Shown piece by piece: positions 4,793 to 22,891 of a stretch of 51,408 nucleotides of DNA. The notes under the pieces were generated by a model that saw only the letters and a program-made list of their open reading frames with translations, had not been told where the DNA came from and did no database searches. Each line of letters opens with the position of its first letter. Position 1 is the stretch's first letter. The stretch is taken from positions 1-51,408 of the forward strand of contig CAINNK010000046.1 in the NCBI GenBank assembly GCA_903851135.1, written 5' to 3'. Made by a program: the position numbers and the translations under genes. This DNA is from an uncultured bacterium (GTDB taxonomy: Bacteria; Patescibacteriota; Minisyncoccia; Moranbacterales; GWC2-37-73).

Positions 4793-5743
4793 ATGAGACT
4801 GATTGTAAATCTTCCAGCTTTCAATGAGGAAGAAAAAATTGCCGAAACTATCAAAAGAATTCCTCGTCAAATTCCCGGCATCGATGAAGTGCTCGTGCAA
4901 GTTATTGATGATGGTTCAAAAGACAAAACGATTGAAGTTGCCAAAGCAGCTGGAGCTGACTTTGTCTACACCAATGGTCTTAATCGCGGAATTGGCATCA
5001 CCTTCAAACATGCCGTGGAAAGCGCTTTGGACAATGGCGCTGACATCATGTGCAACATGGATGCTGATGGACAATTTAATCCTCAAGATATCGTCAAAAT
5101 CATTGATCCTATCTTGAAAAAAGAAGCTGACATGGTTAGTGCAACGCGCTTTGGCAACAAAAAAGCCAAAGATATGCCAAAAGCGAAATACTATCTCAAT
5201 CTTATCGCCGCCAAAATCATCGGAAGTTTTATGAACTACGCAATCGATGATCTTACTTGCGGCTTTCGAGCCTACAGCCGAGAAACCATGATTCGTCTGA
5301 ACATCACCCCAGGCTTTACCTACACCCAAGAAACCATCATTGATGCTATTGGCAAACATTTGAAACTGAAATGGATTGCAGTTGAAGTCACCTATTTTGC
5401 TGGCCGAAAATCTAGAGTTGTGAAAAGTATTTTCAACTATATTAGCAACAGCGGCAAAATCATTCTTGAAGCTGTCCGCGATGTGCGCCCAATGAAATTC
5501 TTCGGTTGGCCAGCTTTCATTTTGCTTTTGACCTCCCTTGGATTTTTCATTCATTTTTTGGTTTTGTATTTCGGTGATTTCAAAATTACCCCGCATCGCA
5601 ACAGTCTTTTTGCAGGCATCACTTTGCTGATTGTTGGCATTCAATTTCTCATTTTCGCTTTCATCGCCGACATGATAAAATCTGCCCGAAAATTGATTGA
5701 GGATCAAGCCCACACCCTCAAAAAATGGCGCTACAAAAAGTAG
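4793..5743 (+). CDS. Glycosyltransferase family 2 (polyprenol-phosphate glycosyltransferase-like, two C-terminal TMs)
   Basis: LPAFNEE, IDDGSKD, MDADGQF, DLTCGFRAY and a C-terminal TM pair. Confidence 0.92.
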   Translation: MRLIVNLPAFNEEEKIAETIKRIPRQIPGIDEVLVQVIDDGSKDKTIEVAKAAGADFVYTNGLNRGIGITFKHAVESALDNGADIMCNMDADGQFNPQDIVKIIDPILKKEADMVSATRFGNKKAKDMPKAKYYLNLIAAKIIGSFMNYAIDDLTCGFRAYSRETMIRLNITPGFTYTQETIIDAIGKHLKLKWIAVEVTYFAGRKSRVVKSIFNYISNSGKIILEAVRDVRPMKFFGWPAFILLLTSLGFFIHFLVLYFGDFKITPHRNSLFAGITLLIVGIQFLIFAFIADMIKSARKLIEDQAHTLKKWRYKK

Positions 5744-5851: not shown

Positions 5852-6961
5852 ATGAAAATACTATTCATTTCACACACCTATCCCCCAATCGTGGGCGGGA
5901 TCGAAGCTCAAAATTTCGAATTGGCAAAATGGCTAAGTAAAATTGCGCAAGTTAAGGTTATCGCCAACACCAAGGGCCGTTGGTTTCTGCCATTTTTTGC
6001 GCCGCTTGCTCTGCTAAAAGCTTTATGGCTGCTGCCAAAATATGATGTCGTAATTTTCGGCAGTGGCATTTTAGCTATTGATGGTTGGATCATCAAATTA
6101 TTTTCCAAAAAACCTGTCATTTCCGTCATTCATGGTCTAGATATTAACTACGGCTCGGCTTCGCTGGGAGTCCGGGGCGAAAAAATTCTTGTTACCATTT
6201 ATCAAAAACTATGGGTCGGAATTTTTCTCAAAAGCGCTGACAAACTTATTGCCGTTGGCAATGAGACTATCAAAGTTGCAATTGAAAGAGGAATTCCCAA
6301 AGAAAAAATCGTCTTCATTCCCAATGGCGTAGACACGGAAAAAAATTTGGTTGAAAAAACCAAAACAGATCTTGAAAAAATTCTTGGTATTTCCATTGCC
6401 GACAAAAAAATATTGCTAACCTCAGGACGACTAGCCAAAAGAAAAGGCGTTGCTTGGTTCATCCGCAATGTTTTTCCGAAATTACCAACAGAATATCTCT
6501 ATGTGATTGCAGGTGATGGCAAAGACAAAGAGAGTGTCCTCCAGGCAATAACCGAAAAGAAACTAGAGCAGCGAATTTTAGTGTTGGGCTATGTCACTGA
6601 TGAAGTTCGCAACACTCTCTGGGCCACTTGCGATTTGTTTGTTCAGCCTAACATCAAAATAGCCGGCGACATGGAAGGTTTTGGCATTTCCGTAATTGAA
6701 GCTGGGGCCTGTCGCTTGCCAGTTCTGGCTTCGGATCTTGAAGGTCTCAAGGATGCTATTAAAGATGGCAAAAATGGATTTTTAGTTGAATCGGAAAATT
6801 CGCAGGCTTTTGCCGAGAAAATCACACAGCTTTTTGCCAACGGTAGTCCACGCGAAATCTTTGGCCAAGCCGTCAGGGATTATGTTGTTGAAAATTATCA
6901 ATGGAAAAAAATCGCCGAGCAGTATATGCAAGAAATAATAAAAGTAACCAGCAATCAGTAA
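5852..6961 (+). CDS. Glycosyltransferase family 4
   Basis: YPPIVGGIE, IPNGVD, GRLAKRKG, EGFGISVIEAGA (EX7E). Confidence 0.93.
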   Translation: MKILFISHTYPPIVGGIEAQNFELAKWLSKIAQVKVIANTKGRWFLPFFAPLALLKALWLLPKYDVVIFGSGILAIDGWIIKLFSKKPVISVIHGLDINYGSASLGVRGEKILVTIYQKLWVGIFLKSADKLIAVGNETIKVAIERGIPKEKIVFIPNGVDTEKNLVEKTKTDLEKILGISIADKKILLTSGRLAKRKGVAWFIRNVFPKLPTEYLYVIAGDGKDKESVLQAITEKKLEQRILVLGYVTDEVRNTLWATCDLFVQPNIKIAGDMEGFGISVIEAGACRLPVLASDLEGLKDAIKDGKNGFLVESENSQAFAEKITQLFANGSPREIFGQAVRDYVVENYQWKKIAEQYMQEIIKVTSNQ

Positions 6962-6973: not shown

Positions 6974-8899
6974 ATGCTATCATTTATCTCCTCACAATTT
7001 AGCTTTTTCTTAACCCTGGGATTAATTCTTTTTGTTCCAGGGCTATGTTTGATTGCAGCAACCGGATTGCAGCGGAATTTTTCTTCTTTGGAAAAATTCA
7101 TACTTTCATTTAGCCTTAGCATTATTGTTGTTGATTTCATCCTTATCCTGATTGGAAAAAGTGGATTTACAATCAATCACTTGAACATTCTTGGCGCGCT
7201 AACAATTTTTGGCGCTGTTTGTTTGGGCATTTATATGTATAGGAAAAACGCTGACACCAAAAAGTCCACCGAAAAAACATCAGACAATTTGCCGGCAAAA
7301 TCCAGCTTACTTGTCATTATCCTGATTTTCCTGACCATTTTCATCAAAACTATTTACTTGCAAGATGTGATTTTCCCAACTGCTACAGACATGGGTCATC
7401 ACATGTATTGGACAAAGACAATTGCAACCACCGGAGCGCTGCCAAAATATGAAAAAGCGGACATTCTTCAAGATAACACCGTCAGTAAACCAGCACCGAT
7501 TGCGGATTTTATTATCGGCGAACATCTCATCTTTGCAGCCATTGCCATAATCTCTGGAGCACAATTCATTTCCGCTTTTCCAATTTTGGTGCTTTTCTTG
7601 ATCAACGTCATGTCCGTGCTGGCTATTTTCATTTTAACCAAAGAGCTTTTCAAAGATTCTAAAAACGTAAACTTGATTTCAATTTTAGCGCTTTTCTTGG
7701 TTGGACCGCTTTATGCTTTGGCATCACCGCAAGCAAAATTTGTCAGTGGCGGCGTTATCGGCAACACAATTGGCAATCTTTTCATTCCGATGACCTTGCT
7801 ATTGTTTTTACGAGCTTTCAAAGAGAAGAAATCAACTTATTTTGCCCTGGCTGTTTTCATTGCTCTTGGCATGGCTTACACTCATCATCTCAGCACCTTT
7901 GTTTTCATTTTCATAGCGTTCTTTTCTTTGTTAATCTTCGGCGCCTTAAATTTCAAAGAATTAAAAACCTACTGCGCGCAATGGCTTAAACTGGTTTTCT
8001 CGCCTGCCGTACTGGCAATTTTTGCCTTGGCGATTGTTTTTGTTTTTTTCATCTACACGCCAACCTATCTCAACTCCAGCGCCATCAACACAGCCGTTGG
8101 AGCCCCCAGTAAAGCCAGTCGAGCAGGCCTTACCCTGACCCAACTCAAATCTACGGCCGGCGAAGCACGTTTTGCCCTGGCCGCGGTCGCCATTGTAATT
8201 CTTTTGCTAGCCAAAAAGATGGACAAATACCCTCGAGCATTTCTGCTAGGTTGGACAATTTCTCTTTCAATTATGTCGCTTCGCCCTGATTGGCTTTTTG
8301 TTGACATCCCTTCTGATCGCATTGCAAGTTACGTCATCTTTCCCAGTGCGATTGCAGCCGCCTATGGTTTTGTTTTCATTTTTTCCAAAATCAAAACTGC
8401 CAACCCGGAAAAAAATTATCTGAAACAGTCGCTGCTTTTTTATTGCTTTTTTGTTTTGATAACTTTTTTTGCAGTCAGTGGCTTTTATGAAAATTCAATG
8501 GCGCTCAACACTGGTAACAATGCCAAGGAAGCTATCCAGACCTACGCAGCTTCGACTTATTTAGCTGGAAAATTGAAAGCCAATGACTTTGTGCTCAAAG
8601 ATCACAACTACCTAACCGGTGATTCCTGGGTAAAGCTATTTTTCATGCGCGGCTATAATTTTCCATTTTCCAGAGGATATTTCAAACGCTATCAAGATGA
8701 CACAAAGACTCGCGAACAGTGCACCAATAATATGATTTCCCTGCCTAGCAGCCCAGAAGCGCAAAAATGTTTTGCTGGGACCAAAATAGATTTCGTGATG
8801 CTCAATCCTAACAATGACGCCGCCCAATTCAATCGCCTCAATGATTTCTGGCAAGTCTACACCGCAGACAATATAGCTGTTTTTTACAAAGCCAAATAA
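6974..8899 (+). CDS. Polytopic membrane protein, probable GT-C fold glycosyltransferase
   Basis: 641 aa with many TM helices, a first external loop carrying 'TDMGHH', 'YTHHLS', and a soluble C-terminal domain. Operon context supports it. Confidence 0.65.
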   Translation: MLSFISSQFSFFLTLGLILFVPGLCLIAATGLQRNFSSLEKFILSFSLSIIVVDFILILIGKSGFTINHLNILGALTIFGAVCLGIYMYRKNADTKKSTEKTSDNLPAKSSLLVIILIFLTIFIKTIYLQDVIFPTATDMGHHMYWTKTIATTGALPKYEKADILQDNTVSKPAPIADFIIGEHLIFAAIAIISGAQFISAFPILVLFLINVMSVLAIFILTKELFKDSKNVNLISILALFLVGPLYALASPQAKFVSGGVIGNTIGNLFIPMTLLLFLRAFKEKKSTYFALAVFIALGMAYTHHLSTFVFIFIAFFSLLIFGALNFKELKTYCAQWLKLVFSPAVLAIFALAIVFVFFIYTPTYLNSSAINTAVGAPSKASRAGLTLTQLKSTAGEARFALAAVAIVILLLAKKMDKYPRAFLLGWTISLSIMSLRPDWLFVDIPSDRIASYVIFPSAIAAAYGFVFIFSKIKTANPEKNYLKQSLLFYCFFVLITFFAVSGFYENSMALNTGNNAKEAIQTYAASTYLAGKLKANDFVLKDHNYLTGDSWVKLFFMRGYNFPFSRGYFKRYQDDTKTREQCTNNMISLPSSPEAQKCFAGTKIDFVMLNPNNDAAQFNRLNDFWQVYTADNIAVFYKAK

Positions 8900-8966
8900 G
8901 CAGTTTTTGGTTCAGAGTTCACGGTTCGCAGTTAAAGTTCTTAAGCAAGTAAAATTCAACAAAAAA

Positions 8967-9329
8967 ATGAACAATAAGACTATTATTTTTTCAACCATTT
9001 TTTTTCTCATGCTCAGTTTTGTTTTTCTGGCTATCGTCGAGAAAAAAGCCTCGGACCCAAACAACCAAAACATCTGGATGCTTTATTTTGAAAATCCGCA
9101 AAACCAAGCAATTGATTTCAAAATTGAAAATCATTCCAGCAACGTTTCCTTTCACTGGCAGTTTGCTGCCGACAAAACAATCATCAAAGAAGGCAACGCA
9201 ATTGTTTCCCTCGGAGAAACAAAAAATATTCCGGTTTCAATTTCAGTTCCCGAATTGGCAGGCAAGAAAATCACCATCTCAGTGACAAGTGATAGCAAAG
9301 TCAAAGAGATATATAAAAACTTTCCTTAA
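8967..9329 (+). CDS. Membrane-anchored hypothetical protein (beta-rich ectodomain)
   Basis: ATG 8967 (MNNKTIIF...) preferred over TTG 8907, which falls in a heptamer repeat. N-terminal TM helix. Confidence 0.7.
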   Translation: MNNKTIIFSTIFFLMLSFVFLAIVEKKASDPNNQNIWMLYFENPQNQAIDFKIENHSSNVSFHWQFAADKTIIKEGNAIVSLGETKNIPVSISVPELAGKKITISVTSDSKVKEIYKNFP

Positions 9330-9517: not shown

Positions 9518-9617
9518 AATTTATTATTTATTTGACATTGGAAATTTAGATTTTGGATTTTTAAAACAGCTTAGAGAAAAAATAGACTGAATATTTTAAC
9601 TATAAATAATCAAAAAC

Positions 9618-10736
9618 ATGAAACGTATTTTATTAATCACCCGTCCGATTGCTCCACCGTGGGATGAAGCTTCAAAAAATTTCGCTTTTTATCTCGCTAA
9701 AAGCGTAGAAAATTTTGAATTTAGCGTACTGACTCCCGGCGTTGTCAATAGCCTGCCCCTGAAAATCAAGCAGCTTCCGATTTTTTCCAGCAATCATCCT
9801 AATTTGCGGTTAAATCAACAAGCCAAACTGTTAAAACTAATACCTTTGATTGGAAAATTTGATATCGCCCATTTCATGCTGACTCCCAACAAACTTAATG
9901 CTTTTGGTTTTAAGACATTCCTAACAAGACGCCAGACAAAATCCGTCCAGACCGTGGCAACTTTGCGTGAAGATCTTTTCTCTGACAAAGATTTCAAAAA
10001 AATTATTTTCGCCGACCTGGTTATTACCTATTCCGATTACGCCAAAAATAAACTCACAAAACTTGGTTTCAAAAACGTCCAAAGAATCTATCCCGGCATT
10101 GATGTCCAACTATATAGCCCTGCCCCGAAAAATCTTTCAACTTTAGCCCTCTTCAAAATCAAACAGGACGATTTTGTAGTTTCCTATCAAGGTGAATACA
10201 CTCGCCTAGGCGCCACCGATACCATCGTGGCAAGTTTGCCGCAGCTTTTCAAGGAAATTCCCAACGCCAAATTCATTTTTGCCAACCGCATTAAAAACGA
10301 AAAAGACGCCGTCAAAAAAGCTCAAGTTATTGAAACCCTTAAGGCAGCTGAAATTTTAGACAAAGTTATTTTCACCGACACTTTTTCCGACATGCCAAAA
10401 ATATATAATCTTTCCGATGTAGTCATTTTTCCTGCCCAAAATATGTATGGAAAATTTGATGTTCCCTTGGTTGTCATTGAAGCGATGGCATGTGCCAAGC
10501 CGGTTGTCATTTCAAATTTGCCAATTTTGCAAGAATTTTCTTCCAATAAAAATTCAATCTCTATTGATCCAACCAGCCAGACCCAATTAGTCAAAGCGAT
10601 TGTTGATTTGTCTCAAGACAAAGAAAAATGCACCAAACTCGGCAAAGCTGCTCGACAATATGTAACAGAAAATTTTGACATCAAGACAGTTGCCAAACAA
10701 TATGAAAGGGCTTACAGGGATTTATTGTCAATCTAA
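9618..10736 (+). CDS. Glycosyltransferase family 4
   Basis: IYPGID, DVVIFP, PLVVIEAMACAKPVV. The first Glu of EX7E appears replaced (GKFDVPLVVIE). Confidence 0.88.
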   Translation: MKRILLITRPIAPPWDEASKNFAFYLAKSVENFEFSVLTPGVVNSLPLKIKQLPIFSSNHPNLRLNQQAKLLKLIPLIGKFDIAHFMLTPNKLNAFGFKTFLTRRQTKSVQTVATLREDLFSDKDFKKIIFADLVITYSDYAKNKLTKLGFKNVQRIYPGIDVQLYSPAPKNLSTLALFKIKQDDFVVSYQGEYTRLGATDTIVASLPQLFKEIPNAKFIFANRIKNEKDAVKKAQVIETLKAAEILDKVIFTDTFSDMPKIYNLSDVVIFPAQNMYGKFDVPLVVIEAMACAKPVVISNLPILQEFSSNKNSISIDPTSQTQLVKAIVDLSQDKEKCTKLGKAARQYVTENFDIKTVAKQYERAYRDLLSI

Positions 10737-10763
10737 ATTGGATTTTTAAAAAAGCAACTCGAA

Positions 10764-10876
10764 ATTTTTACGAACTTATATTCTTTTTTGGCCATACGAG
10801 CGACAGTGAGTCAGAGCGCTTAGCCATAGTCTTGAGCTAAGCGCGTGCTCAAAAAAGGATATGAGTTCGTAAAAAT
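10764..10876 (+). repeat. Palindromic element family B (full copy, forward)
   Basis: 27-bp terminal inverted arms atttttacgaacttatattcttttttg / caaaaaaggatatgagttcgtaaaaat around a core containing gagcgacagtgag..gagcg. Confidence 0.85.
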
Positions 10877-10959
10877 GTTTCCAAGAAATAGGCAAAATTT
10901 TCAAAAATACAAATGACGCATAAGTCCTAACAATAACAATTAAAATTTATTCAACCAAT

Positions 10960-12456
10960 ATGTCCTATCAAATAAATTCGCTTTCTCAAAACAAAAAAGA
11001 ACTTAAGACGGAAAAAATGAAAGTTCCGACGATTTTGCATGGCAGCGACGAACTTTTGCCAAACGAAGAAACCCTCGCTAAACTAGAAGACATTGCCAGC
11101 GACGAAAGACTTTTCCATCACGTGGCTTCCATGAGCGACGTGCATTCCAAAAAAGGTCGCAAAACTCCGACCGGCAGCGTCATTGCCACCCGCAATGATT
11201 TTCTGCCCCAAGTCAACGACACCGCTCCCAATTGCGGCATGCGACTGATTAAAACTGATTTAAACCAGGAAAATGCTAGTCCGGAGCAATTGGAAAAACT
11301 TTTTCAAGAGCTGGTTGAAGTGATTCCGACCAAAAAATATATCGGCACCGCCATCCCCTTCCGCTTGGCACTCGACGTTTGCAAACAAGGTATTGCCCCG
11401 CTGCGAAAACATCTTGACTCCCGTACTGAAAACGAAATTTCCAATGCTTTTGCCGAGGGGAATTTTTTCCGCGACGAAAAAGTCAGCGACCAAGACATTC
11501 TCAATGCCGTGCCGCGTCTATTTTTTCACATTGGCAAATATCGCCTGGGAATTCTCGGTGCCGCTGGCAATCACTTTTTGGATTTGATGAAAATCACCGA
11601 CATCAAAAATTCTCCTATCGCTGAAAAATTTGGTCTCAAGGAAGGCCAATATGTTTTCCTGATGCACACCGGTTCGGGCCTGTTTGGCCAATATGCCTCG
11701 TATATGTATACACCCAAGAAAAAAGAACATCTAAGTCAACAAATTATCTTGAAACTCGGCACCACTTTTTTTTCAAGTCATCTTAAAAATGTTTACGCCA
11801 AGATTGCCAAGGAAATTGAGAAATATAAAAACAGCAACGACTTTATTGGCTACAAAACTGACAGCGCTGAAGGCCAAATGTTTTTCACGGCGCACAAAGC
11901 CAGTGCCAATTTTGGTTTTGCCAATCGAACAGTGCTCAACCATCATCTTGATCAAGCCTTGGAAAAAACTTTTGGTCGCCAAGTGAAACTGGAAATGCTC
12001 TATGATACCACCCATATCTCCATCGAACAGGAAAATCATTATGGAAGTGACGTCTGGGTGCACAGAAACGGCTCTGTGCGTGCCAATGGGCCTGAGCGGA
12101 TGTCAGAGCACCCCCTCTTTTCCCAGACCGGGGAGCCCGTTTTTATCCCTTCTTCCATGAGCACCCCGGCCTACATCGCCGTGGGCACCAATGAAAACCA
12201 ATCTTCTTTCTTCTCTGCCCCGCACGGGACTGGACGCCGTGCCAAAATCTCCGAGGAAACTGCCAAAGACAAAGATCAGCTTTTCAAAAAGATGGATGCA
12301 AGCCATGTCAAATTATACAACGCCAAATCTGAAGGCGTCATCATGCAAGACAGCGCTTACTACAAAGATATCGACGAAGTGATTTCCGGCATGGAAGAAA
12401 ACAAGATGGTCAACGTGGTGGCCAAGATGCAGCCAGTGGCAGTGCTGATGTACTAA
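10960..12456 (+). CDS. rtcB: Divergent RtcB-family (RNA ligase-like) protein
   Basis: Ordered RtcB motifs: SDVH, NCGMRL, LG..GNHFLD, MHTGS, YDTTH, VHRNGSVRA, IPSSMS, SAPHGTGR, YKDIDEV. Several canonical residues are substituted. Confidence 0.88.
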   Translation: MSYQINSLSQNKKELKTEKMKVPTILHGSDELLPNEETLAKLEDIASDERLFHHVASMSDVHSKKGRKTPTGSVIATRNDFLPQVNDTAPNCGMRLIKTDLNQENASPEQLEKLFQELVEVIPTKKYIGTAIPFRLALDVCKQGIAPLRKHLDSRTENEISNAFAEGNFFRDEKVSDQDILNAVPRLFFHIGKYRLGILGAAGNHFLDLMKITDIKNSPIAEKFGLKEGQYVFLMHTGSGLFGQYASYMYTPKKKEHLSQQIILKLGTTFFSSHLKNVYAKIAKEIEKYKNSNDFIGYKTDSAEGQMFFTAHKASANFGFANRTVLNHHLDQALEKTFGRQVKLEMLYDTTHISIEQENHYGSDVWVHRNGSVRANGPERMSEHPLFSQTGEPVFIPSSMSTPAYIAVGTNENQSSFFSAPHGTGRRAKISEETAKDKDQLFKKMDASHVKLYNAKSEGVIMQDSAYYKDIDEVISGMEENKMVNVVAKMQPVAVLMY

Positions 12457-12474
12457 GAAAAAATTTTAAAGGCT

Positions 12475-12577
12475 AAATTTAAAATTTTAAATAAATGTTT
12501 AAATTTAAATTACTAAATGTTTTAAAATTTAGTCATTTCGATTTCATTTCAAATTTAAAATTAAAAAATTAAAATTA
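12475..12577. repeat. AT-rich imperfect palindromic heptamer element (family D)
   Basis: aaatttaaaattttaaat...ttcaaatttaaaattaaaaaattaaaatt. A near-identical right arm occurs at 47232-47266. Confidence 0.65.
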
Positions 12578-13192
12578 ATGCGCATCATCTCAATCTCCGG
12601 CCTTGATGGCTCCGGAAAATCAACTCAAATAAAATTATTGCAGCAGCATTTGGAAGCTCAAGGGGGGAAAGTTTTTTATTTTCACGCTGGTCAATTTAGC
12701 ATCAGCAAGACCTATAATATCCTGCGGCCTCACAAAGTCATCACAAAAACACACAAAGAAAGTGTCACCAAGGCAAACTGGCTGCAAATTCAGCTTCGCA
12801 AAATCGCCTTATTTATTGACCTTCTGCGATTCAAAAAATTACTAAGAAAATTAGAAAAGTCAGGTTATGACTGTTTATTATCCGACCGCTATTTTTATGA
12901 CAGTTTAATAAATATCAATTATCTTGAATCAAAAAATCATCAACCTAAAAGCTATCAGCTAAAAGCTAAAAGCTGCGCAAGCATTCCCTCTCCCGATTTC
13001 GCCTTCTTCCTCAACGCCAACCCTGCCAAAATCATGCAGCGCCCTCGCCCAGCCGATCAAGGCCGCGACTATCTTATGTCCAAACAAAAAATCCTGGTTG
13101 AGTTTGCAAAAAATAATGATTTGCTTGAAATTGACGGAAACAAAACTGAGCAAGAAGTGTTTGGGGAAATTCTCAAAGTAATCAGTAACTAG
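12578..13192 (+). CDS. Thymidylate kinase-like P-loop kinase
   Basis: SGLDGSGKSTQ P-loop, SDRYFYD, PSPDFAFFL. Lacks the canonical TREPG motif of housekeeping Tmk. Confidence 0.82.
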   Translation: MRIISISGLDGSGKSTQIKLLQQHLEAQGGKVFYFHAGQFSISKTYNILRPHKVITKTHKESVTKANWLQIQLRKIALFIDLLRFKKLLRKLEKSGYDCLLSDRYFYDSLININYLESKNHQPKSYQLKAKSCASIPSPDFAFFLNANPAKIMQRPRPADQGRDYLMSKQKILVEFAKNNDLLEIDGNKTEQEVFGEILKVISN

Positions 13193-13220
13193 TAATCAGT
13201 AACTAGTTACTAGTGAAGAC

Positions 13221-13245
13221 TTTCCGAAGGTTGAACCTTCGGAAA
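13221..13245. repeat. Perfect short palindrome (REP-like)
   Basis: tttccgaaggtt-g-aaccttcggaaa, a 12-bp perfect inverted repeat. Confidence 0.85.
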
Positions 13246-13321
13246 TCGGAAACATTAAAGTCGGCCCACACCCATAAATTAATATATGGGTCTAAGAAAA
13301 TAACAAGTAGCGAAAAAGCAT

Positions 13322-14791
13322 ATGAGTATGGAAGACAATTTTTTGAAATCGCAGACGCAGGCTGCAAATATCCCGAAGAAAAAACCGGTGGAAGAATTGC
13401 CAATGGAAAAGTCGCAAGAGGAAGTGGAGCAATCCCCTGCTGAAAATTCAGGGCCGAAGATTGAACCTGTCAAAAATCGCCTGGCTCAAGAGCGCAGAAA
13501 GCAAACAATTGAAATTGAATTTGATGGCATCAAAATTCCCCTCGAGACTGAGTCATATGATTTTGAATATCCTAAACACATTCAAGAAGAAACGGGGATT
13601 TTGGGATATGAGAGGACGAAGATTTCAAATGATGCAATTTTTGATGCACTCAAAGCCTCCAAAAAGAAAACTCGCAGTATAGATTTTACAATAAGTAACA
13701 ATATTGAAAAGATTAAAAAGAAAAAAAGGGTGCGAATAGATTATAAAACCGAAAATGCACGGGTTATTGGTGGTAGCATACTTATGGAATTGTCGAATGG
13801 TGAATATCCGAGATTTTGTTACAATCATAAAATGAACGCGTCCATACATAGCAGTAAACAGGAAAGCGCTCAGTCAAATGCATTCATGGAAGATAAATTT
13901 TTTGTGCAAAGAATGTATGGTCTTAATAGAACAGAAAAGCATCTTGAAAACTTTCAAAAAAAAGAGATCTATAATAATCCAGCATATGCGGAGGAGAGGG
14001 ACAGAAAAAAGATATTCTGCGCATTTGATAAAAAAACAGGGGCAATCTTGGAAGATGAACTTTACCCTGGTGACATTCCCGAGGTGCTACAGAAAAATCC
14101 TGAGGCGTTCATTGCGCCACAACGGGATGGAATAAATCTATTGGTCTCAAATTTCTTCAATGGCCTGAAAATAGATTCAACCTCATTCGGATTTCCAATG
14201 AAGCTTGAGTCGCACATGAAAGATTATATGGGACAATGCCTCCATTTCTATTCAAATAAAAAGAATGGTATTAAGCCAGAGATTGCATCCACTATATTTG
14301 GAGGGCATTTAGAGAACTCTCTTCTTATGCTGTCTCTTGATGAGATACTACGAGATGAAGAGTTGCTTGCTAAAATGTTAGCCATGATAAATAAATATCC
14401 CGAATCTCCTGATCCTGATAAGGCTAAGACGGCACTTATTTGTAAGATTTTTGAAAAAATATGCATAAAATACGAATTGAAAATTGATTCGCTAGTAAGT
14501 GAATATACATGGAGAGATAAATTTGTGAGCCGAGATAGAAATATTCAAGAATCTTTGATAGCTCATGTAGCACTTGCATTGGATATTATTGGTGATCCTG
14601 AATCTTACTCGATTCAAGGGGATGGGGATCATGCGTATCTTCCAGTTTTTATCAATCACGACGAAATTCCGCAACTCGCTTGGGGTCATGCGAAATACGC
14701 ACATTATTCCAACGAAAAAAGTTTCAATTTTTTCAAATTCAAACACGCGGAGCATTTACCAGAGCCACAAAAAGTGAAACACGAAGAATGA
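13322..14791 (+). CDS. Hypothetical protein, 489 aa
   Basis: Long ORF with a charged low-complexity N-terminus and no recognisable family motif. Codon style looks different from its neighbours. Confidence 0.75.
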   Translation: MSMEDNFLKSQTQAANIPKKKPVEELPMEKSQEEVEQSPAENSGPKIEPVKNRLAQERRKQTIEIEFDGIKIPLETESYDFEYPKHIQEETGILGYERTKISNDAIFDALKASKKKTRSIDFTISNNIEKIKKKKRVRIDYKTENARVIGGSILMELSNGEYPRFCYNHKMNASIHSSKQESAQSNAFMEDKFFVQRMYGLNRTEKHLENFQKKEIYNNPAYAEERDRKKIFCAFDKKTGAILEDELYPGDIPEVLQKNPEAFIAPQRDGINLLVSNFFNGLKIDSTSFGFPMKLESHMKDYMGQCLHFYSNKKNGIKPEIASTIFGGHLENSLLMLSLDEILRDEELLAKMLAMINKYPESPDPDKAKTALICKIFEKICIKYELKIDSLVSEYTWRDKFVSRDRNIQESLIAHVALALDIIGDPESYSIQGDGDHAYLPVFINHDEIPQLAWGHAKYAHYSNEKSFNFFKFKHAEHLPEPQKVKHEE

Positions 14792-14816
14792 AATTTAATA
14801 ATCATTAATATTTGAT

Positions 14817-14920
14817 TTTCCTCCTTTAGAAAAGGAGGATTAAGGTGGATTTGAAAAACTTAATAAACAAAGAAAGTTTTCCAATCCCTCCCAACCTCCC
14901 TTTTCCAAAGGGAGGAGAAA
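14817..14920. repeat. Inverted pair of REP-like hairpins
   Basis: cctcctttagaaaaggaggattaaggtggatt ... aatccctcccaacctcccttttccaaagggagg. Each half is a hairpin and the halves are mutually inverted. Confidence 0.75.
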
Positions 14921-14939
14921 AATCTTTTTTAAAATATTT

Positions 14940-16484
14940 ATGTCCTCCAATAATCTTGCAAAATCAACTGTCTGGCTCATTGTCTCGGAATTGATTTTTA
15001 ACCTTTCGGGTTATTTCATTCATTCTTTCGTTGGCCGCATCCTTGGGCCGGCTGATTATGGCCGCTACGGTTTGGTCGTGACGCTCACCACGATGGTCAT
15101 CATCTTGATTGGCAACGGCATCCCGACCGCCATGAGCAAATACATGAGCGAAGTGTTTGAAACCAATCCGAGCCTTATTCCTGTCATCAAACGCCAAGCT
15201 ATCATCATGCAAGGCATTTTAATTGCCGGCGTAACAGTAATTTTCTATTTCTGCGCACCATTGATCGCCAATGTTTTAGGTGATCCTTCCTTAACCTATC
15301 TTTTCAAAATTTCCGCCTGGATTATTCCTTCTTTTGCTTTGGCTTCATTTTATTTTTCCTACTACACGGGTCTGCATCAATTCAATTTGCAGTCCATCAT
15401 GAAAACCGTGCGTTCTGTTTTCAAGGTTGTCATCATTGTGGGCATGGCCTGGAAATGGGGTGTGCCTGGCTCAGTGCTGGGCTATGCTTTTTCAACCTTT
15501 GCCGTTTATTTCATTGCCGTGACCATTGATAAGTTGAAATTTTCTCGAGATTTGAAAAAACAAATCGCTCTTCAACAACAAGCATCCACCAAACCGATTG
15601 ACGTTTCATTTGATTACAAAAAACTTCTCAACTATGCTTGGCAAGTCATCATTTTCTTTTTGGCCTATGAACTCCTCATTAGTATCGACCTTTATCTCGT
15701 CAAAGGCATTTTGCATGATGATTATCTAACCGGAATCTATAACGCCGCCCTGACAGTTGGGCGCATTCCCTACTATATTTTCTACGCGCTAACCATCATG
15801 TTGCTGCCAGTCATTTCCAAAACCACCGCCGAAAAAGATCACAAACAGACCAATGCGGTCATCAGTCAATCACTGCGCCTCATGACAATCCTGCTGATTC
15901 CTGCCGTAATTTTGATGTCACAATTTTCGCGTCCCATCATTAAACTTTTTTACAGCGCTAAATACTTAGATGCTGCCTATCCAATGTCAATCTTAGCCTA
16001 TGGCGTGGGCTTTTTGACCATCTTTTATGTCATGAGTTTTGTGCTTAATGGCGCTGGCAAAACCAAAATCCCAATGTGGATTTCAATTTTCGGAGTGATT
16101 GTCAATTCAATTCTAAATTATGTTTTCATCAAACGCTATGGCCTAGCTGGCAGCGCCATCGCCACCACCATCACCTCTTTTGCCACGATGCTGGCAATTC
16201 TCTATTATATTCAACGTGATTTCGGCGTGATGATTCATTTGAAAAGTCTGGTCAAAATGTTTTTTGCCGGAGTTTTGATGTATCTGGCTTCATTCTTTTT
16301 TAGTCAAGGCACTTTCATTTTTCTTGCTTGGTCAATCCTCCTTTTTGCAGGATATCTAGCAGTCCTTTATTTGCTAGGTGAAATCAATAAAGCCGATTTG
16401 ATTTATCTAAAACAAATCACTGCTAAAAAATCTAAGAAAGTCCAAATGCAAGAAGAACTTTCCGGCAACGAACCAGTCGCCTAA
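14940..16484 (+). CDS. Polysaccharide/oligosaccharide flippase (MOP superfamily, Wzx-like)
   Basis: GRILGPADYGRYG, about 14 TMs, GIYNAA, GAGKTKIPM, YGLAGSAIAT. Confidence 0.9.
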   Translation: MSSNNLAKSTVWLIVSELIFNLSGYFIHSFVGRILGPADYGRYGLVVTLTTMVIILIGNGIPTAMSKYMSEVFETNPSLIPVIKRQAIIMQGILIAGVTVIFYFCAPLIANVLGDPSLTYLFKISAWIIPSFALASFYFSYYTGLHQFNLQSIMKTVRSVFKVVIIVGMAWKWGVPGSVLGYAFSTFAVYFIAVTIDKLKFSRDLKKQIALQQQASTKPIDVSFDYKKLLNYAWQVIIFFLAYELLISIDLYLVKGILHDDYLTGIYNAALTVGRIPYYIFYALTIMLLPVISKTTAEKDHKQTNAVISQSLRLMTILLIPAVILMSQFSRPIIKLFYSAKYLDAAYPMSILAYGVGFLTIFYVMSFVLNGAGKTKIPMWISIFGVIVNSILNYVFIKRYGLAGSAIATTITSFATMLAILYYIQRDFGVMIHLKSLVKMFFAGVLMYLASFFFSQGTFIFLAWSILLFAGYLAVLYLLGEINKADLIYLKQITAKKSKKVQMQEELSGNEPVA

Positions 16485-16489
16485 ATAAA

Positions 16490-17743
16490 TCATTTTGCAT
16501 AAAGATAAAAGAAATCTTTTTCATAACCATTGAGATATTGCTTCGAACCATCAGCCAAATCCTTTGTCAGGGTTGTGGAATTATATTTACCGTTGCCGAC
16601 ATAGTCGAACAAATTAAACCTTACCCAAATAGGATTGATATCCAATTGAATGGCACTAACCGCGCCGGCTGTTTTCAGGGCTGAGGCCAAAGTCACTGGG
16701 GTCAGATTATTGCCAACCGCAAAAAGTAGATTGCCCTCCTTGGTTAGGCCAATGCCAGATCGCCAAGTGTAAATATCCACCGTGCCGGCCGCAAGTCGTC
16801 CCCAAAGTTTTTTATTGCGTTGATCACCAACGGCCAAATCGCCATTATCAATCAAGATCGGACAATTTTGCCGAACAAATTCAACATTATCCCCCAACTG
16901 CTGACCAGTATAATTTACTATCCTCAAAGACCCATCTTTATAGCCAACCAAGGTTCCTAAATCATTTTTAAGTGGCAAATACGTGTTATCGCCCACAATC
17001 ATACCGTAGGCACCATCTTTATATTGAAAACCACCATCGAAAGCAGCGATCAATTTTCCACCGCTAATAATATCCTTAGGTACAACGCCAGGTCCAGGTT
17101 TTCCAACCGGACCACCAGGTTGTTTAGTGCCAGCCACGCTGCCCAGCCTCATCACGCTTTTATCAATTTGCACGATAGTTGTAATAGCATAAGACCTGGC
17201 CGGATCAGGACGAACAAAAGTATGTGCCATAACCTCCCTATTTGGGAAGGCTCCAATAGGCAAATTTTTCCACTCACCTTCGCCAGCAAGTGGCTGAGGA
17301 TCTCCAACTGTTGAAAGTGAATTCAAGTTAAGTTTACCACCCATGATATTGGTTCCGAGACCGTTATCATTGAAGACTGGGGCCTTGTCGGAGTTACTAT
17401 TATGGGTCACGCGCTGGGCCAAATCAGAAGCGTTAAAGAATATTTTCTCCAAATAAACAATTCGATTGTCTCCAATCAATGGACGCAAAACATTATCAGT
17501 CAAATAAGCTGCCCCAGCAGTATCCAACTTAATGAAAAGTATTATGCCGAGCAAAAAAAGACCACAGAAAAAAAATACGAGCTTAAAATTGCCATAAACT
17601 CTGGATTTTTTGGGAACTTTAATTTCTTTAAAGCTTATTGGCTGCTTATCAGTATCTACTTGTTTCAAAGCTCTAAGTTTCTCATTATGCTCTTGAATAT
17701 GCTTTATTTTTGGCGATTTTATTTTTTGTCTAATAATGTCCAT
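16490..17743 (-). CDS. Phosphodiester glycosidase family protein (NAGPA/DUF2233-like), membrane anchored
   Basis: N-terminal TM, AAFDGGF, TWRSGIGLT, and GAVSAIQLDIN (NAGPA-like AxNLDGG variant). Confidence 0.7.
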   Translation of the reverse strand: MDIIRQKIKSPKIKHIQEHNEKLRALKQVDTDKQPISFKEIKVPKKSRVYGNFKLVFFFCGLFLLGIILFIKLDTAGAAYLTDNVLRPLIGDNRIVYLEKIFFNASDLAQRVTHNSNSDKAPVFNDNGLGTNIMGGKLNLNSLSTVGDPQPLAGEGEWKNLPIGAFPNREVMAHTFVRPDPARSYAITTIVQIDKSVMRLGSVAGTKQPGGPVGKPGPGVVPKDIISGGKLIAAFDGGFQYKDGAYGMIVGDNTYLPLKNDLGTLVGYKDGSLRIVNYTGQQLGDNVEFVRQNCPILIDNGDLAVGDQRNKKLWGRLAAGTVDIYTWRSGIGLTKEGNLLFAVGNNLTPVTLASALKTAGAVSAIQLDINPIWVRFNLFDYVGNGKYNSTTLTKDLADGSKQYLNGYEKDFFYLYAK

Positions 17744-17749: not shown

Positions 17750-19384
17750 TTATTTTTTAATAAGTTCTTCAATTGTGAATCGTCCATGTGACTTGATGTC
17801 TTGAGCCACATAAATTTCAGCAAATGATTTTGTGAGCTTACCTTTGTTTTTCGCATTACTGATTGAAAAAATCAGATCACTTGGACTCGGCTCCGTTTTT
17901 TTTGAGAAAGCTTTGAGCTGAACACTATGCTTACTGGTAAAATATTCAATTGATTTGAGATATTTGAAAAGATAAGTCTGTTTACCTTGCAAGAAAACAG
18001 TGCTACCAGGCTGAGCATGTTGAACAACATAGTTAGCCAGAAATTCAGCTTCCCCCAGCATTATTTCAGTTTCAGTTGAAGTGCTGATCTGTTTCTTGTT
18101 GGCGTGATCTGCAAAAGAAGTTTTGACCGCCAAAATATTGGTGCCTAAAATAATTACAACAATAATTCCAACCAAAGTCATGGCATATTTTGAATATTTT
18201 TCCCCCCATTGCAAAAGAGCTTCCAGCCAAAGACTCAAAAGTACAAATGGCACAAAAATCAAAGCCAAATAAAACCGCAACGAAATTTCCTTGGCTAAGG
18301 GAATCAACAAGATAAATCCAACCAAAGCATAGATGCCAGCTAGTTGCAGAAAAAGTTTTTTCTTTGGTTCAGTTGTTTTGCGAAGACTTTGAAGCCAAAG
18401 CCACACTCCACCAAAAGAAAAAACGAGACTCAAAAATGTTCCAAACACAAAAAAGGCTTTATTGAAAATTCCGTGCGTCTTGTTGTAAATGCTTTTCAGT
18501 AAACCTGCGCCGCATTGATCATCATTGCCAAGGCCAGAAATTATAAAAACATCTGCTTGCAGTTGGCATGCCACGTCATCAGCCAGATTGTTGAGCAATG
18601 AACTTCCCTTGGCAGTTTTCGTAGAAGCCCCACCAAAAAAAGCTTTGACATTCGCGCCATTGGTTTGAAATTCACTAACAATTTGGCCGGTGTTTAAAAA
18701 GGCAGCCAACAGAAAAACAATTGCAGCTTGTTTCCAAATGAGTGGATTTTTCCTACTCACCCAAACAAAAAAGATTACCGCCGTGATTGGCATGATAATC
18801 AAAAGCAAAGTGTGCAATTGCACGCCAACGCCAAGCGCCACGCCGCCGGCCAACGCGACCCAAAATTTTCTCACGGTTTTATTTTCACCCAAAACAAGCA
18901 AGGCATAAAGGAATAGCAAACAATAAAAAGGCGCTGAATTTGGATTCCAAGCAAACCGCGCATATTTGATGGCAAAAATACTCACGCTCAAAACGCCTGT
19001 CAAAACCAAGGCGATGTTTTCATTGAAAGCTCTTTTCAAAAACAAAAACAGCAGTGGAATCGCCAAAATAGAAGCCAGCAAATCAGGATACGCCATTTTG
19101 TCTGGCGCATCGCCGAAAATTTTGGCCGAGGTTATTTGTAAATAGTAAAAAGCACCGCCGAGTTTAAATTCAGTTCCGCCAGCTTTCGGTCCAAGCAATG
19201 GCAGACCGCTCTTGCCTTCGACAAAATCACTGACCACGCCAGCGTCGCGCGATTGATCAGCATTAAAACGCAGCCAGTCATGAAAATGATAGGTTCGCAG
19301 AAAAATGCCAAGCAAAATTATTCCCGTTAAAATCAAAACGTAATTAGGAATTCTTTTAATTTGTTCTTTTAAATATTTATACAT
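17750..19384 (-). CDS. ArnT/PMT-like GT-C glycosyltransferase (paralog 1)
   Basis: DWLRFNADQSRDA, PLLGP, AYPDL, YARFAWNPN, VQLH; polytopic. Confidence 0.82.
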   Translation of the reverse strand: MYKYLKEQIKRIPNYVLILTGIILLGIFLRTYHFHDWLRFNADQSRDAGVVSDFVEGKSGLPLLGPKAGGTEFKLGGAFYYLQITSAKIFGDAPDKMAYPDLLASILAIPLLFLFLKRAFNENIALVLTGVLSVSIFAIKYARFAWNPNSAPFYCLLFLYALLVLGENKTVRKFWVALAGGVALGVGVQLHTLLLIIMPITAVIFFVWVSRKNPLIWKQAAIVFLLAAFLNTGQIVSEFQTNGANVKAFFGGASTKTAKGSSLLNNLADDVACQLQADVFIISGLGNDDQCGAGLLKSIYNKTHGIFNKAFFVFGTFLSLVFSFGGVWLWLQSLRKTTEPKKKLFLQLAGIYALVGFILLIPLAKEISLRFYLALIFVPFVLLSLWLEALLQWGEKYSKYAMTLVGIIVVIILGTNILAVKTSFADHANKKQISTSTETEIMLGEAEFLANYVVQHAQPGSTVFLQGKQTYLFKYLKSIEYFTSKHSVQLKAFSKKTEPSPSDLIFSISNAKNKGKLTKSFAEIYVAQDIKSHGRFTIEELIKK

Positions 19385-19387
19385 ATT

Positions 19388-21007
19388 TTATTGAAGTTGA
19401 TATATGCCGATTTGTCCGACATCTAAATGATTTATAAATTTCATCCCGCCAATTTCCTGCTGCGAACTTTTTCCAAGACCAGAACCTACATAAAAAGCCG
19501 GCGTGCCAACAGGAACAACTTCAAGATTAACACCACGCTGCAAAGTCAAACCTTTTTTTGCTGTCAAATAAATCAAAGTTTTGTTATATGGCGAATAATA
19601 TCTTGTGCCCCCAAACAAATAGGCGGTTTTTTGGCCAACCGACTTGGAAACCATGAAATCCACCAAAGGCTGCGCCTCATCCAAAACAAGATATCCTGAA
19701 TCTGCGCGCATTTTGTTTTCCAGTGCCAACCCTTCATTATAAATAGAGAATAAATTAGTAAAAGCAAAGAAAATAAAAATTAAGATTACCCCCAAAAGAT
19801 ATTTTTGCGGATATTTATGCCTCAGGTATTTGACTATCAAACCAACCAAAACAAACGGCAAAAAGGTCGTGTGGATAAAATAGCGCATTGGAGCAAGATC
19901 AATAATTGGCAGCATCACTCCAAAAGAAACTGCGGCATACAAAAGAATAATGCCCGTGAAATATTTTCGTTTTTTGTCTGTTTCTTTCCAGGTTTGATAG
20001 CCAAGTAATCCATATCCCAAAGCTGAAAAAAGCAAGCTCAAAAAGATTCCCAGCAATGAAAACGGGCGGTTCGGCAATTGCAACTTGCTGCCCGATTTCA
20101 TGTTTCGTGCCTTCGAATAAAGGAAATCGCAATTTTCCTTGTTGCCCAAAGCAGCTGAAATTAACGTATTGGCTTGAGCATTGCAAGCGACATTCAATTG
20201 CAAATTTCGAAAAAATCTCTTACTGCCACCATTGTCTGATTTATCGTTAAAGGAGGCCAAAAAAACTTTCGAATTTGCATAATTAGTCTGCTGCTCGTGA
20301 ATGATTTGCCCAGTGTTTGCCACAACTGCAATCAAAAAAATCACCACCCACCGACTCCAAGTTCTCCAACTTTTTTTCATCAAAAAAACAAAAGTCACAC
20401 CCAAGACGCCCAACATAGTCAACAACAAAATTGCGTGCAATTGAGAACCAACTCCAAAAGCAATACCCAAGAAAAAAATCCATTTCCAAGCGGTTTTTTC
20501 CTTAGCAATTAAAAATTCCCAAAGCGACAACAAAAAAAGCATCACGAAAAACGGGATTGGATTTGGGTTCCAAGCAAAACGCGAATATTCGATCGTGTAA
20601 TAAGAAATACTATAAAGCCCGGCTAGCAACAAGGCTAAATTTTTACCAAAAAACCTTTTGAGAAAAAAATAAAGCAGTGGAATAGACAAAAGATTGAAAA
20701 AAAGATCCGGATATGCCAGTTTGTCAGGTCCAATCCCAAAAATTTTCACCGAAATTATTTGGAAATAATAATACATCGGACCCAACAGAAAACCGGTGTT
20801 TCCCATTGAAGAACCCAACAGTGGCCAAGGCGCATTATTTTTCACCACATCCTCAACCAAAAAAGCATCTCTCGCTTGGTCATTGCCAAAATGAAGCCAG
20901 TCATGAAATTTATAAACCCGAAAGAAAATTCCCAAGCCAAACAACAAAATTACTATCGACATTAAAAACTTCTTGGACTTCAAAAATTGCTGGATTTTTT
21001 CTTGCAT
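19388..21007 (-). CDS. ArnT/PMT-like GT-C glycosyltransferase (paralog 2)
   Basis: DWLHFGNDQARDA, PLLG, AYPDL, YSRFAWNPN, SQLH. Confidence 0.82.
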   Translation of the reverse strand: MQEKIQQFLKSKKFLMSIVILLFGLGIFFRVYKFHDWLHFGNDQARDAFLVEDVVKNNAPWPLLGSSMGNTGFLLGPMYYYFQIISVKIFGIGPDKLAYPDLFFNLLSIPLLYFFLKRFFGKNLALLLAGLYSISYYTIEYSRFAWNPNPIPFFVMLFLLSLWEFLIAKEKTAWKWIFFLGIAFGVGSQLHAILLLTMLGVLGVTFVFLMKKSWRTWSRWVVIFLIAVVANTGQIIHEQQTNYANSKVFLASFNDKSDNGGSKRFFRNLQLNVACNAQANTLISAALGNKENCDFLYSKARNMKSGSKLQLPNRPFSLLGIFLSLLFSALGYGLLGYQTWKETDKKRKYFTGIILLYAAVSFGVMLPIIDLAPMRYFIHTTFLPFVLVGLIVKYLRHKYPQKYLLGVILIFIFFAFTNLFSIYNEGLALENKMRADSGYLVLDEAQPLVDFMVSKSVGQKTAYLFGGTRYYSPYNKTLIYLTAKKGLTLQRGVNLEVVPVGTPAFYVGSGLGKSSQQEIGGMKFINHLDVGQIGIYQLQ

Positions 21008-22644: not shown

Positions 22645-22674
22645 ACAATATAATAAACGAGGCTACATCAACTT

Positions 22675-22718
22675 AAAATTTTACAAACTTATTTCCTTTT
22701 TGGGCCATATGAGCGACA
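22675..22718 (+). repeat. Family B left arm and partial core (truncated)
   Basis: aaaattttacaaacttatttcctttttgggccatatgagcgaca matches the start of the 10764 copy. Confidence 0.7.
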
Positions 22719-22735
22719 ACGATAAGGTATTGACA

Positions 22736-22871
22736 TTAGGACTTACGCGCTTGATCGAAAAATTACTTACAACCAGTTTTTTAGCAAGAGAGACTTGAAG
22801 TAGACCAGGGGAGATTTTCTTAGCAAAGAAATTACGCTCTAGGAATTTGAGAGCAAGCGCGTAAGTCCTAA
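22736..22871 (+). repeat. Palindromic element family A (MITE or structured-RNA-like), copy 1
   Basis: Perfect 18-bp terminal inverted repeat ttaggacttacgcgcttg/caagcgcgtaagtcctaa. The core is conserved in the copies at 29358 and 36740. Confidence 0.9.
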
Positions 22872-22891
22872 ATAATTTAAATTAAACCACT

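Follow-up and report, generated by a model that had tools for sequence, protein, structure and literature searches.

We analyzed a stretch of 51,408 nucleotides (hereafter the window), contig CAINNK010000046.1 of assembly GCA_903851135.1 from an uncultured member of the Moranbacterales (Patescibacteriota), in which the genes for a family 4 glycosyltransferase (GT4b), a protein of the RtcB fold and a P-loop kinase resembling thymidylate kinase (Tmk) follow one another on the same strand. The three constitute a single three-gene unit in the variable part of an operon for a lipid-linked glycan. To our knowledge, RtcB is taken to be a ligase of nucleic acids throughout the three domains of life. 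The position of the genes and the residues of the RtcB-like protein suggest that the RtcB fold may have a second, non-nucleic-acid function, in which a ligase acting through a histidine-bound nucleoside monophosphate (His-NMP) would activate a phosphomonoester, made by the kinase on a sugar or lipid-linked glycan, and join it to a hydroxyl, the enzymes being carried on a portable GT4-RtcB-kinase cassette that varies by strain; we assign this full reading a probability of roughly one in three. The more general proposal, that the RtcB-like protein is a glycan-pathway enzyme and not an RNA ligase, appears likely because of gene adjacency, a single open reading frame (ORF) shared with GT4b, gain and loss as a cassette, co-occurrence of the genes, a distant triad, a separate RNA-type paralogue, the residue pattern and a control set of loci, and the RtcB enzyme family probably has a role outside RNA. 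The module itself is real, conserved and unusual, and the function that we infer for it comes from its context. The cassette genes are located as follows.

9618..10736, + strand: GT4b glycosyltransferase, first cassette gene (Pfam Glycos_transf_1, 69 bits)
10960..12456, + strand: RtcB-fold protein, P0001 (Pfam RtcB, 241.9 bits, cut-off 27)
12578..13192, + strand: Tmk-like P-loop kinase, P0002, third cassette gene (Pfam Thymidylate_kin, 40.6 bits, cut-off 27)

The co-oriented order of GT4, RtcB-like gene, kinase, insert and flippase given in a preliminary description of this DNA holds, with an ORF at each of the places it named and Pfam domains in agreement for all but the insert, which has no family. 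The window is contig C46 of a genome (G000) of 1.28 Mb in 46 contigs, 100% complete and with 1.31% contamination.

Linkage of GT4b, the RtcB-Like Gene and the Kinase

Among 61 genomes of the order, counting G000 itself, 54 gave a full or near-full RtcB-like match (E ≤ 1e-95), one (G019) gave weak canonical-like matches only and the other six gave none. In loci taken one each from 20 genomes of the order, GT4b lies upstream on the same strand in every case, once within a single ORF, and the kinase was recovered downstream of the RtcB-like gene by ORF-BLAST in 17 of the 20. The three apparent misses were resolved as a kinase on another contig (G003) and as kinases lying 3.2 kb (G052) and 9.2 kb (G037) downstream. 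Metagenomes supplied a set of 80 further loci, all at 51% identity or more and of the same clade, some of them identical to genome contigs, which add no distant lineages; here GT4b precedes the RtcB-like gene, on the same strand, in 60 of 62 assessable loci (within 400 nt in 55 of these) and the kinase downstream in 55 of 65 (within 400 nt in 42). A scan of genome contigs with a single protein as query gave only 5 loci. As a control, six other RtcB loci were inspected for a GT4b or kinase neighbor, and none had one.

It is clear that the linkage of GT4b, RtcB-like gene and kinase is more than chance. Its conservation, which the preliminary description had put forward, is borne out for GT4b in 20/20 genome loci and 60/62 metagenome loci, and homologs in unrelated neighborhoods, which that description had named as a finding that would speak against it, amount to two exceptions among 62.

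The association extends to the proteins themselves. One genome (G017) encodes GT4b and the RtcB-like protein as one ORF of 886 residues with both Pfam domains, and a cluster at 90% identity (P0155) holds three distinct GT4b-RtcB single ORFs (886, 876 and 886 residues) from different sources, plus two calls of 498 residues. No kinase fusion was found among the longer proteins, which is weak evidence. A separate cluster of Chloroflexota records (P0075) contains an 885-residue protein in which a 430-residue N-terminal part of no known family precedes a divergent RtcB domain. It was considered as another GT4b-RtcB fusion and rejected, its N-terminal 430 residues not being GT4b-like.

Gain and Loss of the Cassette

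Four relatives at 95–99% completeness (G001, G002, G006 and G010) have no RtcB match, and GT4b and the kinase are likewise missing from them, with the DUF1616-like gene of the operon retained. In the two that belong to the window's genus (G002 and G006), the order runs Ugd, GT2, GT4a, DUF1616-like gene, small gene and flippase, with precisely GT4b, the RtcB-like gene and the kinase missing; the contigs of G001 and G010 stop next to the small gene, and the junction falls outside view. Across the genomes tested, the kinase is found in 5/5 that bear the RtcB-like gene, even where the two are not adjacent, vs. 0/5 that lack it, and GT4b was not found in 4/5 of the RtcB-less genomes searched. The remaining genome counted as RtcB-less (G011) probably had its RtcB gene fall in an assembly gap, since its GT4b is cut by the contig end.

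The DUF1616-like protein is 76–79% identical to that of the window in genus-mates that bear the triad vs. 40–41% in triad-less ones; taken together with the small protein and, for G005, the flippase, the identities to the window in those that bear the triad span 65–92%. For the triad-less G006, the corresponding identities are 96% for GT4a, 41% for the DUF1616-like protein, 37% for the small protein and 45% for the flippase. The locus is thus a mosaic, strain-variable glycan locus with the triad inside its variable part.

Triad in a Distant Genome and a Separate Canonical RtcB

In a sample of 401 genomes of the phylum, strong RtcB-like matches are confined to the window's order, and the next best comes from G309, a genome of another order, at 33% identity. 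Its locus (L057) reads GT2, GT4a, methyltransferase, B12 radical-SAM enzyme, GT4b (29%), RtcB-like protein (31%), Tmk-like kinase (27%), membrane protein and PMT, the percentages being identities. G309 is alone among 16 genomes of its order in having the glycan-linked RtcB type, and it has a second RtcB elsewhere. Its RtcB-like protein groups with an Omnitrophota record, in a non-canonical group different from the window clade. P0024, a protein from an Omnitrophota record, belongs to a non-canonical clade outside the Candidate Phyla Radiation. In the same locus, the methyltransferase and the B12-binding radical-SAM enzyme lie between GT4a and GT4b at 4729–6866, and a membrane protein of the LPG_synthase_TM type takes the place of the MOP flippase.

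P0001 is the sole RtcB match in G000, and the corresponding protein is the sole RtcB in most relatives. A second, canonical rtcB, which the preliminary description had suggested looking for in the window's genome, is therefore not there, but sister genomes do have one: in three genomes of the order (G046, G042 and G045) a second, canonical-like RtcB adjoins archease in 3/3 examined. A PD-(D/E)XK nuclease lies near the canonical-like RtcB and archease in at least one of these genomes. The preliminary description had also reported rtcA, rtcR, archease and prfH to be absent from the window; for archease and RtcA this extends to the whole of the 100% complete genome, where neither was found, and rtcR and prfH were not searched for.

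The RtcB-like protein is accordingly joined to GT4b and the kinase by genetic linkage, and it differs from the RtcB that accompanies archease. That the gene is tied to the glycan operon and not to RNA repair, as was originally proposed, is upheld by the adjacency, the single ORF, the joint gain and loss, the separate RtcB-archease pair and the loss of residues described below.

Family and Active Site of the RtcB-Like Clade

P0001 is a real member of the RtcB-fold enzyme family and belongs to a non-canonical clade. Its AlphaFold2 model has a predicted local distance difference test (pLDDT) of 95 and matches Pyrococcus horikoshii RtcB (4dwq) in Foldseek with template modeling (TM) scores of 0.82/0.85 at 25% identity, and a sequence alignment with the P. 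horikoshii protein covers two pieces only (126.6 bits). The scores of P0001 with the NCBI equivalog models are far under the cut-offs (PRK09588, 115.2 vs. 407; release_rtcB, 80.8 vs. 271.8), and an ESM Atlas search returned generic RtcB clusters only. One cluster member carries the public label “RtcB family protein.” The tree of RtcB sequences was built with FastTree and rooted at the midpoint, has no support values, and is used here for grouping and not for the order of events. In a neighboring non-canonical RtcB group (P0008–P0011, P0013 and P0014), HE(I/L)GK replaces HGxGR after the nucleophile His and the Tyr-Lys pair is lost.

Each of the kept and changed RtcB motifs named in the preliminary description is present in P0001. 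Those kept are NCG (91–93), GNH (203–205), MHTGS (235–239), TTH (350–352) and PHGTGR (421–426), and those changed are APNC for DINC, NHFLD for NHFLE, GSGL for GSRG, HI for HN, HRNGS for HRKGA, PSSMS for PGSMG and a C-terminal LMY for KG. The roles of the corresponding residues can be taken from structural work on RtcB. The available part of one account gives Cys98, His234 and His329 as ligands of the first metal (M1), Cys98, Asp95 and His203 as ligands of the second (M2), His404 as the nucleophile, contacts to guanine from Lys480 (to O6) and Glu206 (to N1/N2), and contacts of Asn330 to the gamma phosphate and of Asn202 to the alpha-beta bridge (PMC9745838). The part of another available to us has the 5'-OH held by Asn202 and the first phosphates of the 5'-OH strand held by Arg238, Arg190 and Gln194 (PMC8051266).

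These positions were tabulated over 88 unique clade sequences, and a separate alignment of 54 rows includes canonical forms. The metal ligands C92, H205, H236 and H352 and the nucleophile H422 are invariant in 88/88 clade sequences and in the 54-row alignment, and N204 (the Asn202 counterpart) and the counterparts of Asp65 and Tyr451 are likewise invariant in the 88. Around this core, fixed or nearly fixed replacements are seen. For the guanine contacts, the Lys480 position is Met in 87/88 and the Glu206 position is Asp in all 88; for the 5'-OH strand, the Arg238 position is Gly throughout (88/88), no displayed clade row has Arg at the Arg190 position, and an Arg (Arg195) is fixed at the Gln194 position. 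The Asn330 position is Ile, Val or Leu in 88/88, and Asn or Ser stands in place of the Lys in HRKG. The M2 ligand position Asp95 is Ala in 74/88, Asp in 13/88 and Ser in 1/88, and Asp87, two residues upstream of it, is invariant in the clade and might stand in for Asp95 as an M2 ligand.

The active site of the clade is remodeled and conserved, not decayed, with the nucleotidylation core retained and the base-reading, leaving-group and 5'-OH-strand contacts altered. Because the G309 form keeps E206, R238 and the terminal KG, the listed changes mark the Moranbacteria clade and are not shared by all RtcB proteins linked to glycan genes.

The Tmk-Like Kinase

Across 46 kinase sequences, G8, D10, G11, S12, G13, K14, T16, D103 and R104 are invariant and R155 and R157 nearly so; past the P-loop helix comes a variable segment that carries insertions. 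The AlphaFold2 model of P0002 (pLDDT 90.7) finds Tmks as its best Foldseek matches (TM 0.62–0.70). With NCBIfam TIGR00041 the protein scores 36.5 bits against an equivalog cut-off of 83.25. Among the best 120 of 1283 relatives at E ≤ 1e-10, the named rows are labeled “thymidylate kinase,” “dTMP kinase” or “hypothetical protein” in public records.

It is important to consider whether this kinase could serve as the true Tmk of the genome, and we reject this as unlikely, since there is a better candidate on contig C8 and the window kinase is missing from 5/5 RtcB-less relatives. The C8 gene outscores the window kinase both with Pfam (51.1 vs. 37.8 bits) and against solved Tmks (P. falciparum Tmk, 65.4 vs. 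28.8 bits). It encodes 198 residues and is part of a compact cluster at about 66150–69500 (L002), made up of thyA, folA, a 121-residue ORF, the Tmk-like gene, a 273-residue ORF and dut, so that the possibility raised in the preliminary description, of the window kinase being the only dTMP kinase, did not materialize. In the C8 candidate the DRY of Tmks is replaced by EDY, and its score too is under the NCBI equivalog cut-off. Also on C8, tRNA-Ile(GAT) adjoins tRNA-Ala(TGC), as in a bacterial rRNA spacer, which suggests that the genome is that of a bacterium.

Proposed Mechanism and Rival Explanations

The variant that we favor, tentatively and at somewhat less than even odds, is one in which a phosphate made by the kinase would be activated through His-NMP and ligated to a glycan hydroxyl to give a phosphodiester. 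The RtcB-like protein would be a paralogue that has departed from RNA repair, and the cassette would, on the cytoplasmic face of the membrane, give the lipid-linked surface glycan a serotype-like feature ahead of its export by the MOP flippase. The kinase would phosphorylate an intermediate (sugar, polyol or glycan) that is either a product or a substrate of GT4b, and the RtcB-like enzyme would self-nucleotidylate at His422 with its two-metal site, the nucleotide probably not being read as guanine in the canonical manner. The NMP would next be passed to the phosphomonoester to form an X-P-P-nucleoside anhydride, and attack by a hydroxyl of the growing glycan or a substituent would yield the phosphodiester link and free NMP. 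The proposed scheme would amount to the three-step chemistry of RtcB on a non-RNA substrate.

Several observations weigh against this scheme. We know of no RtcB-family enzyme that acts outside nucleic acids. The support for a non-RNA substrate consists of gene position and residue pattern, and the related genomes and metagenome contigs behind the linkage counts are kin, and partly the same contigs, which means that the counts overstate independence. The catalytic core is intact, so that joining or capping of RNA or DNA ends is chemically possible, and the Tmk P-loop and DRY motifs retained by the kinase mean that homology favors a nucleotide-like phosphate acceptor over a sugar hydroxyl. The G309 RtcB-like protein retains E206, R238 and the terminal KG in spite of its glycan setting. 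In L120 (7001–9110), the RtcB-like gene and the kinase sit among genes for cell division and the cell wall (mraW, ftsI and a mur-ligase gene) to one side and dnaX to the other, with no GT4b and no glycan operon, and L070 has the order priA, GT4b, x, RtcB with the kinase missing; even in these two exceptions, two triad members remain together. The 202-residue ORF between GT4b and RtcB in L070 was considered as the kinase and rejected, as it is not a kinase. Finally, the available part of a 2023 review names no RtcB substrates other than RNA and DNA (PMC10630183), and the same is true of the structural accounts cited above.

The same genes could be arranged into a route to a sugar donor, with the kinase making X-phosphate and the RtcB-like enzyme, working through His-NMP, stopping after its second step and releasing a nucleoside diphosphate (NDP)-X as the donor of GT4b. 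GT4 enzymes need nucleotide-activated donors, the three genes are gained and lost as a unit, and the GT4b-RtcB single ORF would permit channeling of the product. The clade has lost R238 and R190, whose side chains keep the 5'-OH strand in place for the third step, and the changes at Asp95 and Asn330, which contact the beta and gamma phosphates of the leaving group, would fit another nucleotidyl donor or leaving group. We nevertheless consider such a donor synthase unlikely, as four conventional NTP_transferase genes are already present in the genome, kinases of the Tmk fold are not known to phosphorylate sugars at the anomeric position, R238 is kept in the G309 form, and the invariant Asn204, together with the Arg195 fixed at the Gln194 position, leaves room for a third-step site that may persist. 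A further reading is an ordinary 3'-phosphate ligase of RNA or DNA, or a capping enzyme, caught in a frozen operon of a streamlined genome and perhaps partnered by the kinase in end healing or nucleotide salvage. The full catalytic core and RtcB fold, the status of P0001 as the only RtcB of G000 and of its counterpart in most relatives, the Tmk-like sequence and fold of the kinase, and the L120 pair of RtcB and kinase away from glycan genes all agree with this. It has to contend, however, with the single ORF shared with a glycosyltransferase, the loss together with GT4b from an operon that is otherwise retained, the four relatives at 95–99% completeness with no RtcB at all, and a triad kept at about 30% identity in G309, which has a second RtcB. 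The sister genomes, moreover, keep a separate RtcB-archease pair and G000 is without archease or RtcA, the 5'-OH-strand arginines and guanine contacts have fixed replacements, and a better Tmk candidate exists in the thyA-folA-dut cluster. On balance, we hold a nucleic-acid enzyme to be no more probable than the donor synthase.

A pathway to a small molecule seems far less probable than either of these. Here the product of GT4b, the kinase and the RtcB-like enzyme would be soluble, either a glycosylated phospho-compound or a derivative of a nucleotide, and not a feature of a polymer. The nearest solved or curated relatives of GT4b are indeed BshA/MshA-type GT4s, a type that glycosylates small acceptors, but its score of 63 bits is far under the family cut-offs of 274–460. 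The nucleotide-kinase-like character of the kinase and the occurrence of triad parts outside a glycan operon in L070 and L120 speak for such a pathway, and against it the cassette nearly always occupies the variable part of the locus, with membrane proteins to one side and the flippase to the other.

Operon Context and Other Features of the Window

The operon occupies 3170–16484 on the + strand, as a run of co-oriented genes that begins with an NDP-sugar dehydrogenase and ends with a MOP flippase. A promoter-like site (11/12 matches) lies upstream of the dehydrogenase at 3081–3110, and a scan for promoters and terminators gave no internal terminator above background. Besides the cassette, the features of the operon and its surroundings are the following.

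3170..4450, + strand: NDP-sugar dehydrogenase, first operon gene (Pfam UDPG_MGDP_dh, three matches; NCBIfam NDP-sugDHase, 407.8 bits, cut-off 189.8)
4793..5743, + strand: GT2, polyprenyl-phosphate sugar synthase-like (Pfam Glycos_transf_2; position conserved in related loci)
5852..6961, + strand: GT4a glycosyltransferase (Pfam Glycos_transf_1, 120.9 bits)
6974..8899, + strand: membrane protein of 641 residues with a DUF1616-like N-terminus (Pfam DUF1616, 32.1 bits), in the variable region of the locus
8907..9329, + strand: small conserved protein of no Pfam or NCBIfam family, with an orthologue in most loci
13322..14791, + strand: insert ORF, P0003, 489 residues, lineage-specific and outside the conserved module (no Pfam or NCBIfam family)
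14940..16484, + strand: MOP-family (Wzx/MurJ-like) flippase, last + strand operon gene (Pfam Polysacc_synt, 85.5 bits; MurJ, 66.2 bits)
16490..17743, − strand: NAGPA-domain protein, convergent (Pfam NAGPA, 33.7 bits, cut-off 25)
17750..26802, − strand: array of GT-C (PMT/PMT_2) membrane glycosyltransferase paralogues (Pfam PMT_2/PMT for 17750–19384, 19388–21007 and 25048–26802)
22892–25051, − strand: ORF of 719 residues inside the GT-C array, with no family found
26858..27757, − strand: metallophosphoesterase, 9 kb away (Pfam Metallophos, 65.3 bits)

The gene order of the operon is conserved in the 20 genome loci and most of the 80 metagenome loci. Related loci have an orthologue of the dehydrogenase in the corresponding position, the GT2 weakly matches the NCBIfam models for AglJ, PpgS and Dol-P hexose transferase, each under its cut-off, and GT4a is present in triad-bearing and triad-less loci alike. 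The true start of the small protein may lie downstream of that listed, its orthologues being about 117–125 residues long. The flippase comes after the kinase in most loci and directly after the small protein in triad-less ones, and GT-C paralogues flank the operon in related loci. The locus therefore brings together a donor synthase, cytoplasmic glycosyltransferases, a flippase and periplasmic-face GT-C enzymes. A second PMT-type GT-C array lies at 29656–35372, and across the two arrays at least four of the ORFs scanned match PMT or PMT_2. An Rfam scan of the window gave no RNA elements besides two tRNA genes at 43174–43244 and 49866–49938 (−).

The junction between kinase and flippase looks like an insertion hot spot. 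The insert ORF, which is single-copy in the genome, recurs in 1/20 related loci, that of the genus-mate G005, with 99% amino acid identity as compared to 92% for the RtcB-like protein and 76% for the kinase; at the nucleotide level the segment of insert and flippase is 93.7% identical between the two vs. 67–86% for the rest of the operon. Other, unrelated ORFs occupy the junction in L030, L063, L059, L074 and L105.

The preliminary description had drawn on a phosphodiester glycosidase and a metallophosphoesterase at this locus. Both are present, yet they are weak as support, as neither is conserved at the locus and the metallophosphoesterase is 9 kb off. The NAGPA protein has a best-hit counterpart in 0/20 related loci and was for this reason rejected as support for phosphodiester chemistry. 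A CpdA/SpdA-like metallophosphoesterase, 24% identical to that of the window, is found between the RtcB-like gene and the kinase in L028 (6971–8062, −), L060 (8501–9649) and L061, and the lineage of these three loci includes the single-ORF GT4b-RtcB form. It is an occasional fourth cassette member only.

Implications and Comparison with Known Systems

We found no published account of this module in the literature on RtcB together with glycosyltransferases, thymidylate kinase, polysaccharide biosynthesis or the Candidate Phyla Radiation (CPR)/Patescibacteria. If the RtcB-like clade acts on sugars or lipid-linked intermediates, this would be a new reaction type for glycan biosynthesis, with RNA-repair chemistry recruited to another use and phosphodiester-linked surface glycans made by a route independent of cytidine diphosphate (CDP)-alcohol or NDP-sugar-phosphate transferases. 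The clade has been fixed over long evolutionary times, with its RNA-holding and guanine-reading residues lost. The cassette marks a strain-variable surface feature in Moranbacteria, which are episymbiotic ultra-small bacteria with barely known envelopes, and automatic labels may mislead for hundreds of database entries. For biochemistry, the natural single-ORF GT4b-RtcB protein is a ready construct.

The closest known relative is canonical RtcB (P. horikoshii PH1602, human RTCB), with which the clade shares the fold, the M1 ligands, His203, the nucleotidylated His and the Asn202 counterpart. The two differ in that the clade is only about 25% identical to the canonical enzyme, with Asp95, Glu206, Lys480, Asn330, Arg238 and Arg190 replaced, and in that the window gene sits in a glycan operon of a genome without archease or RtcA, whereas the canonical type is the archease-linked paralogue in sister genomes. 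A precedent for RtcB paralogues that diverge in their favored step, be it ligation or NMP capping, is offered by RtcB1-3 of Myxococcus xanthus, which reportedly cap DNA and RNA (PMC10630183). These enzymes act on nucleic-acid ends and are not known to have a link to a glycosyltransferase.

With dTMP kinase (Tmk, PF02223/TIGR00041), the window kinase shares a P-loop (GxDGSGKST), a motif of the DRY type (SDRYFYDS) and a lid in which Arg is conserved, but it is under the equivalog cut-off and co-occurs with the RtcB-like gene, not with the genome core. The logic of the proposed cassette is that of the LicA/LicC/LicD phosphocholine pathway and of GalK/GalT, in which the phosphomonoester formed by a kinase is activated by nucleotidyl transfer and then put in place by a transferase, with GalT working through a covalent His-UMP and hence, like the proposed enzyme, a covalent His-NMP; the folds are unrelated, however, and none of these families occurs in the cassette. 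Among lipid-phosphate-linked glycosylation systems, we found no archaeal Agl-type or bacterial three-component one reported to include an enzyme of the RtcB fold or a kinase resembling Tmk. The window operon resembles these systems in its AglJ/PpgS-like GT2, its GT4s, its MOP flippase and its many PMT-type GT-C paralogues.

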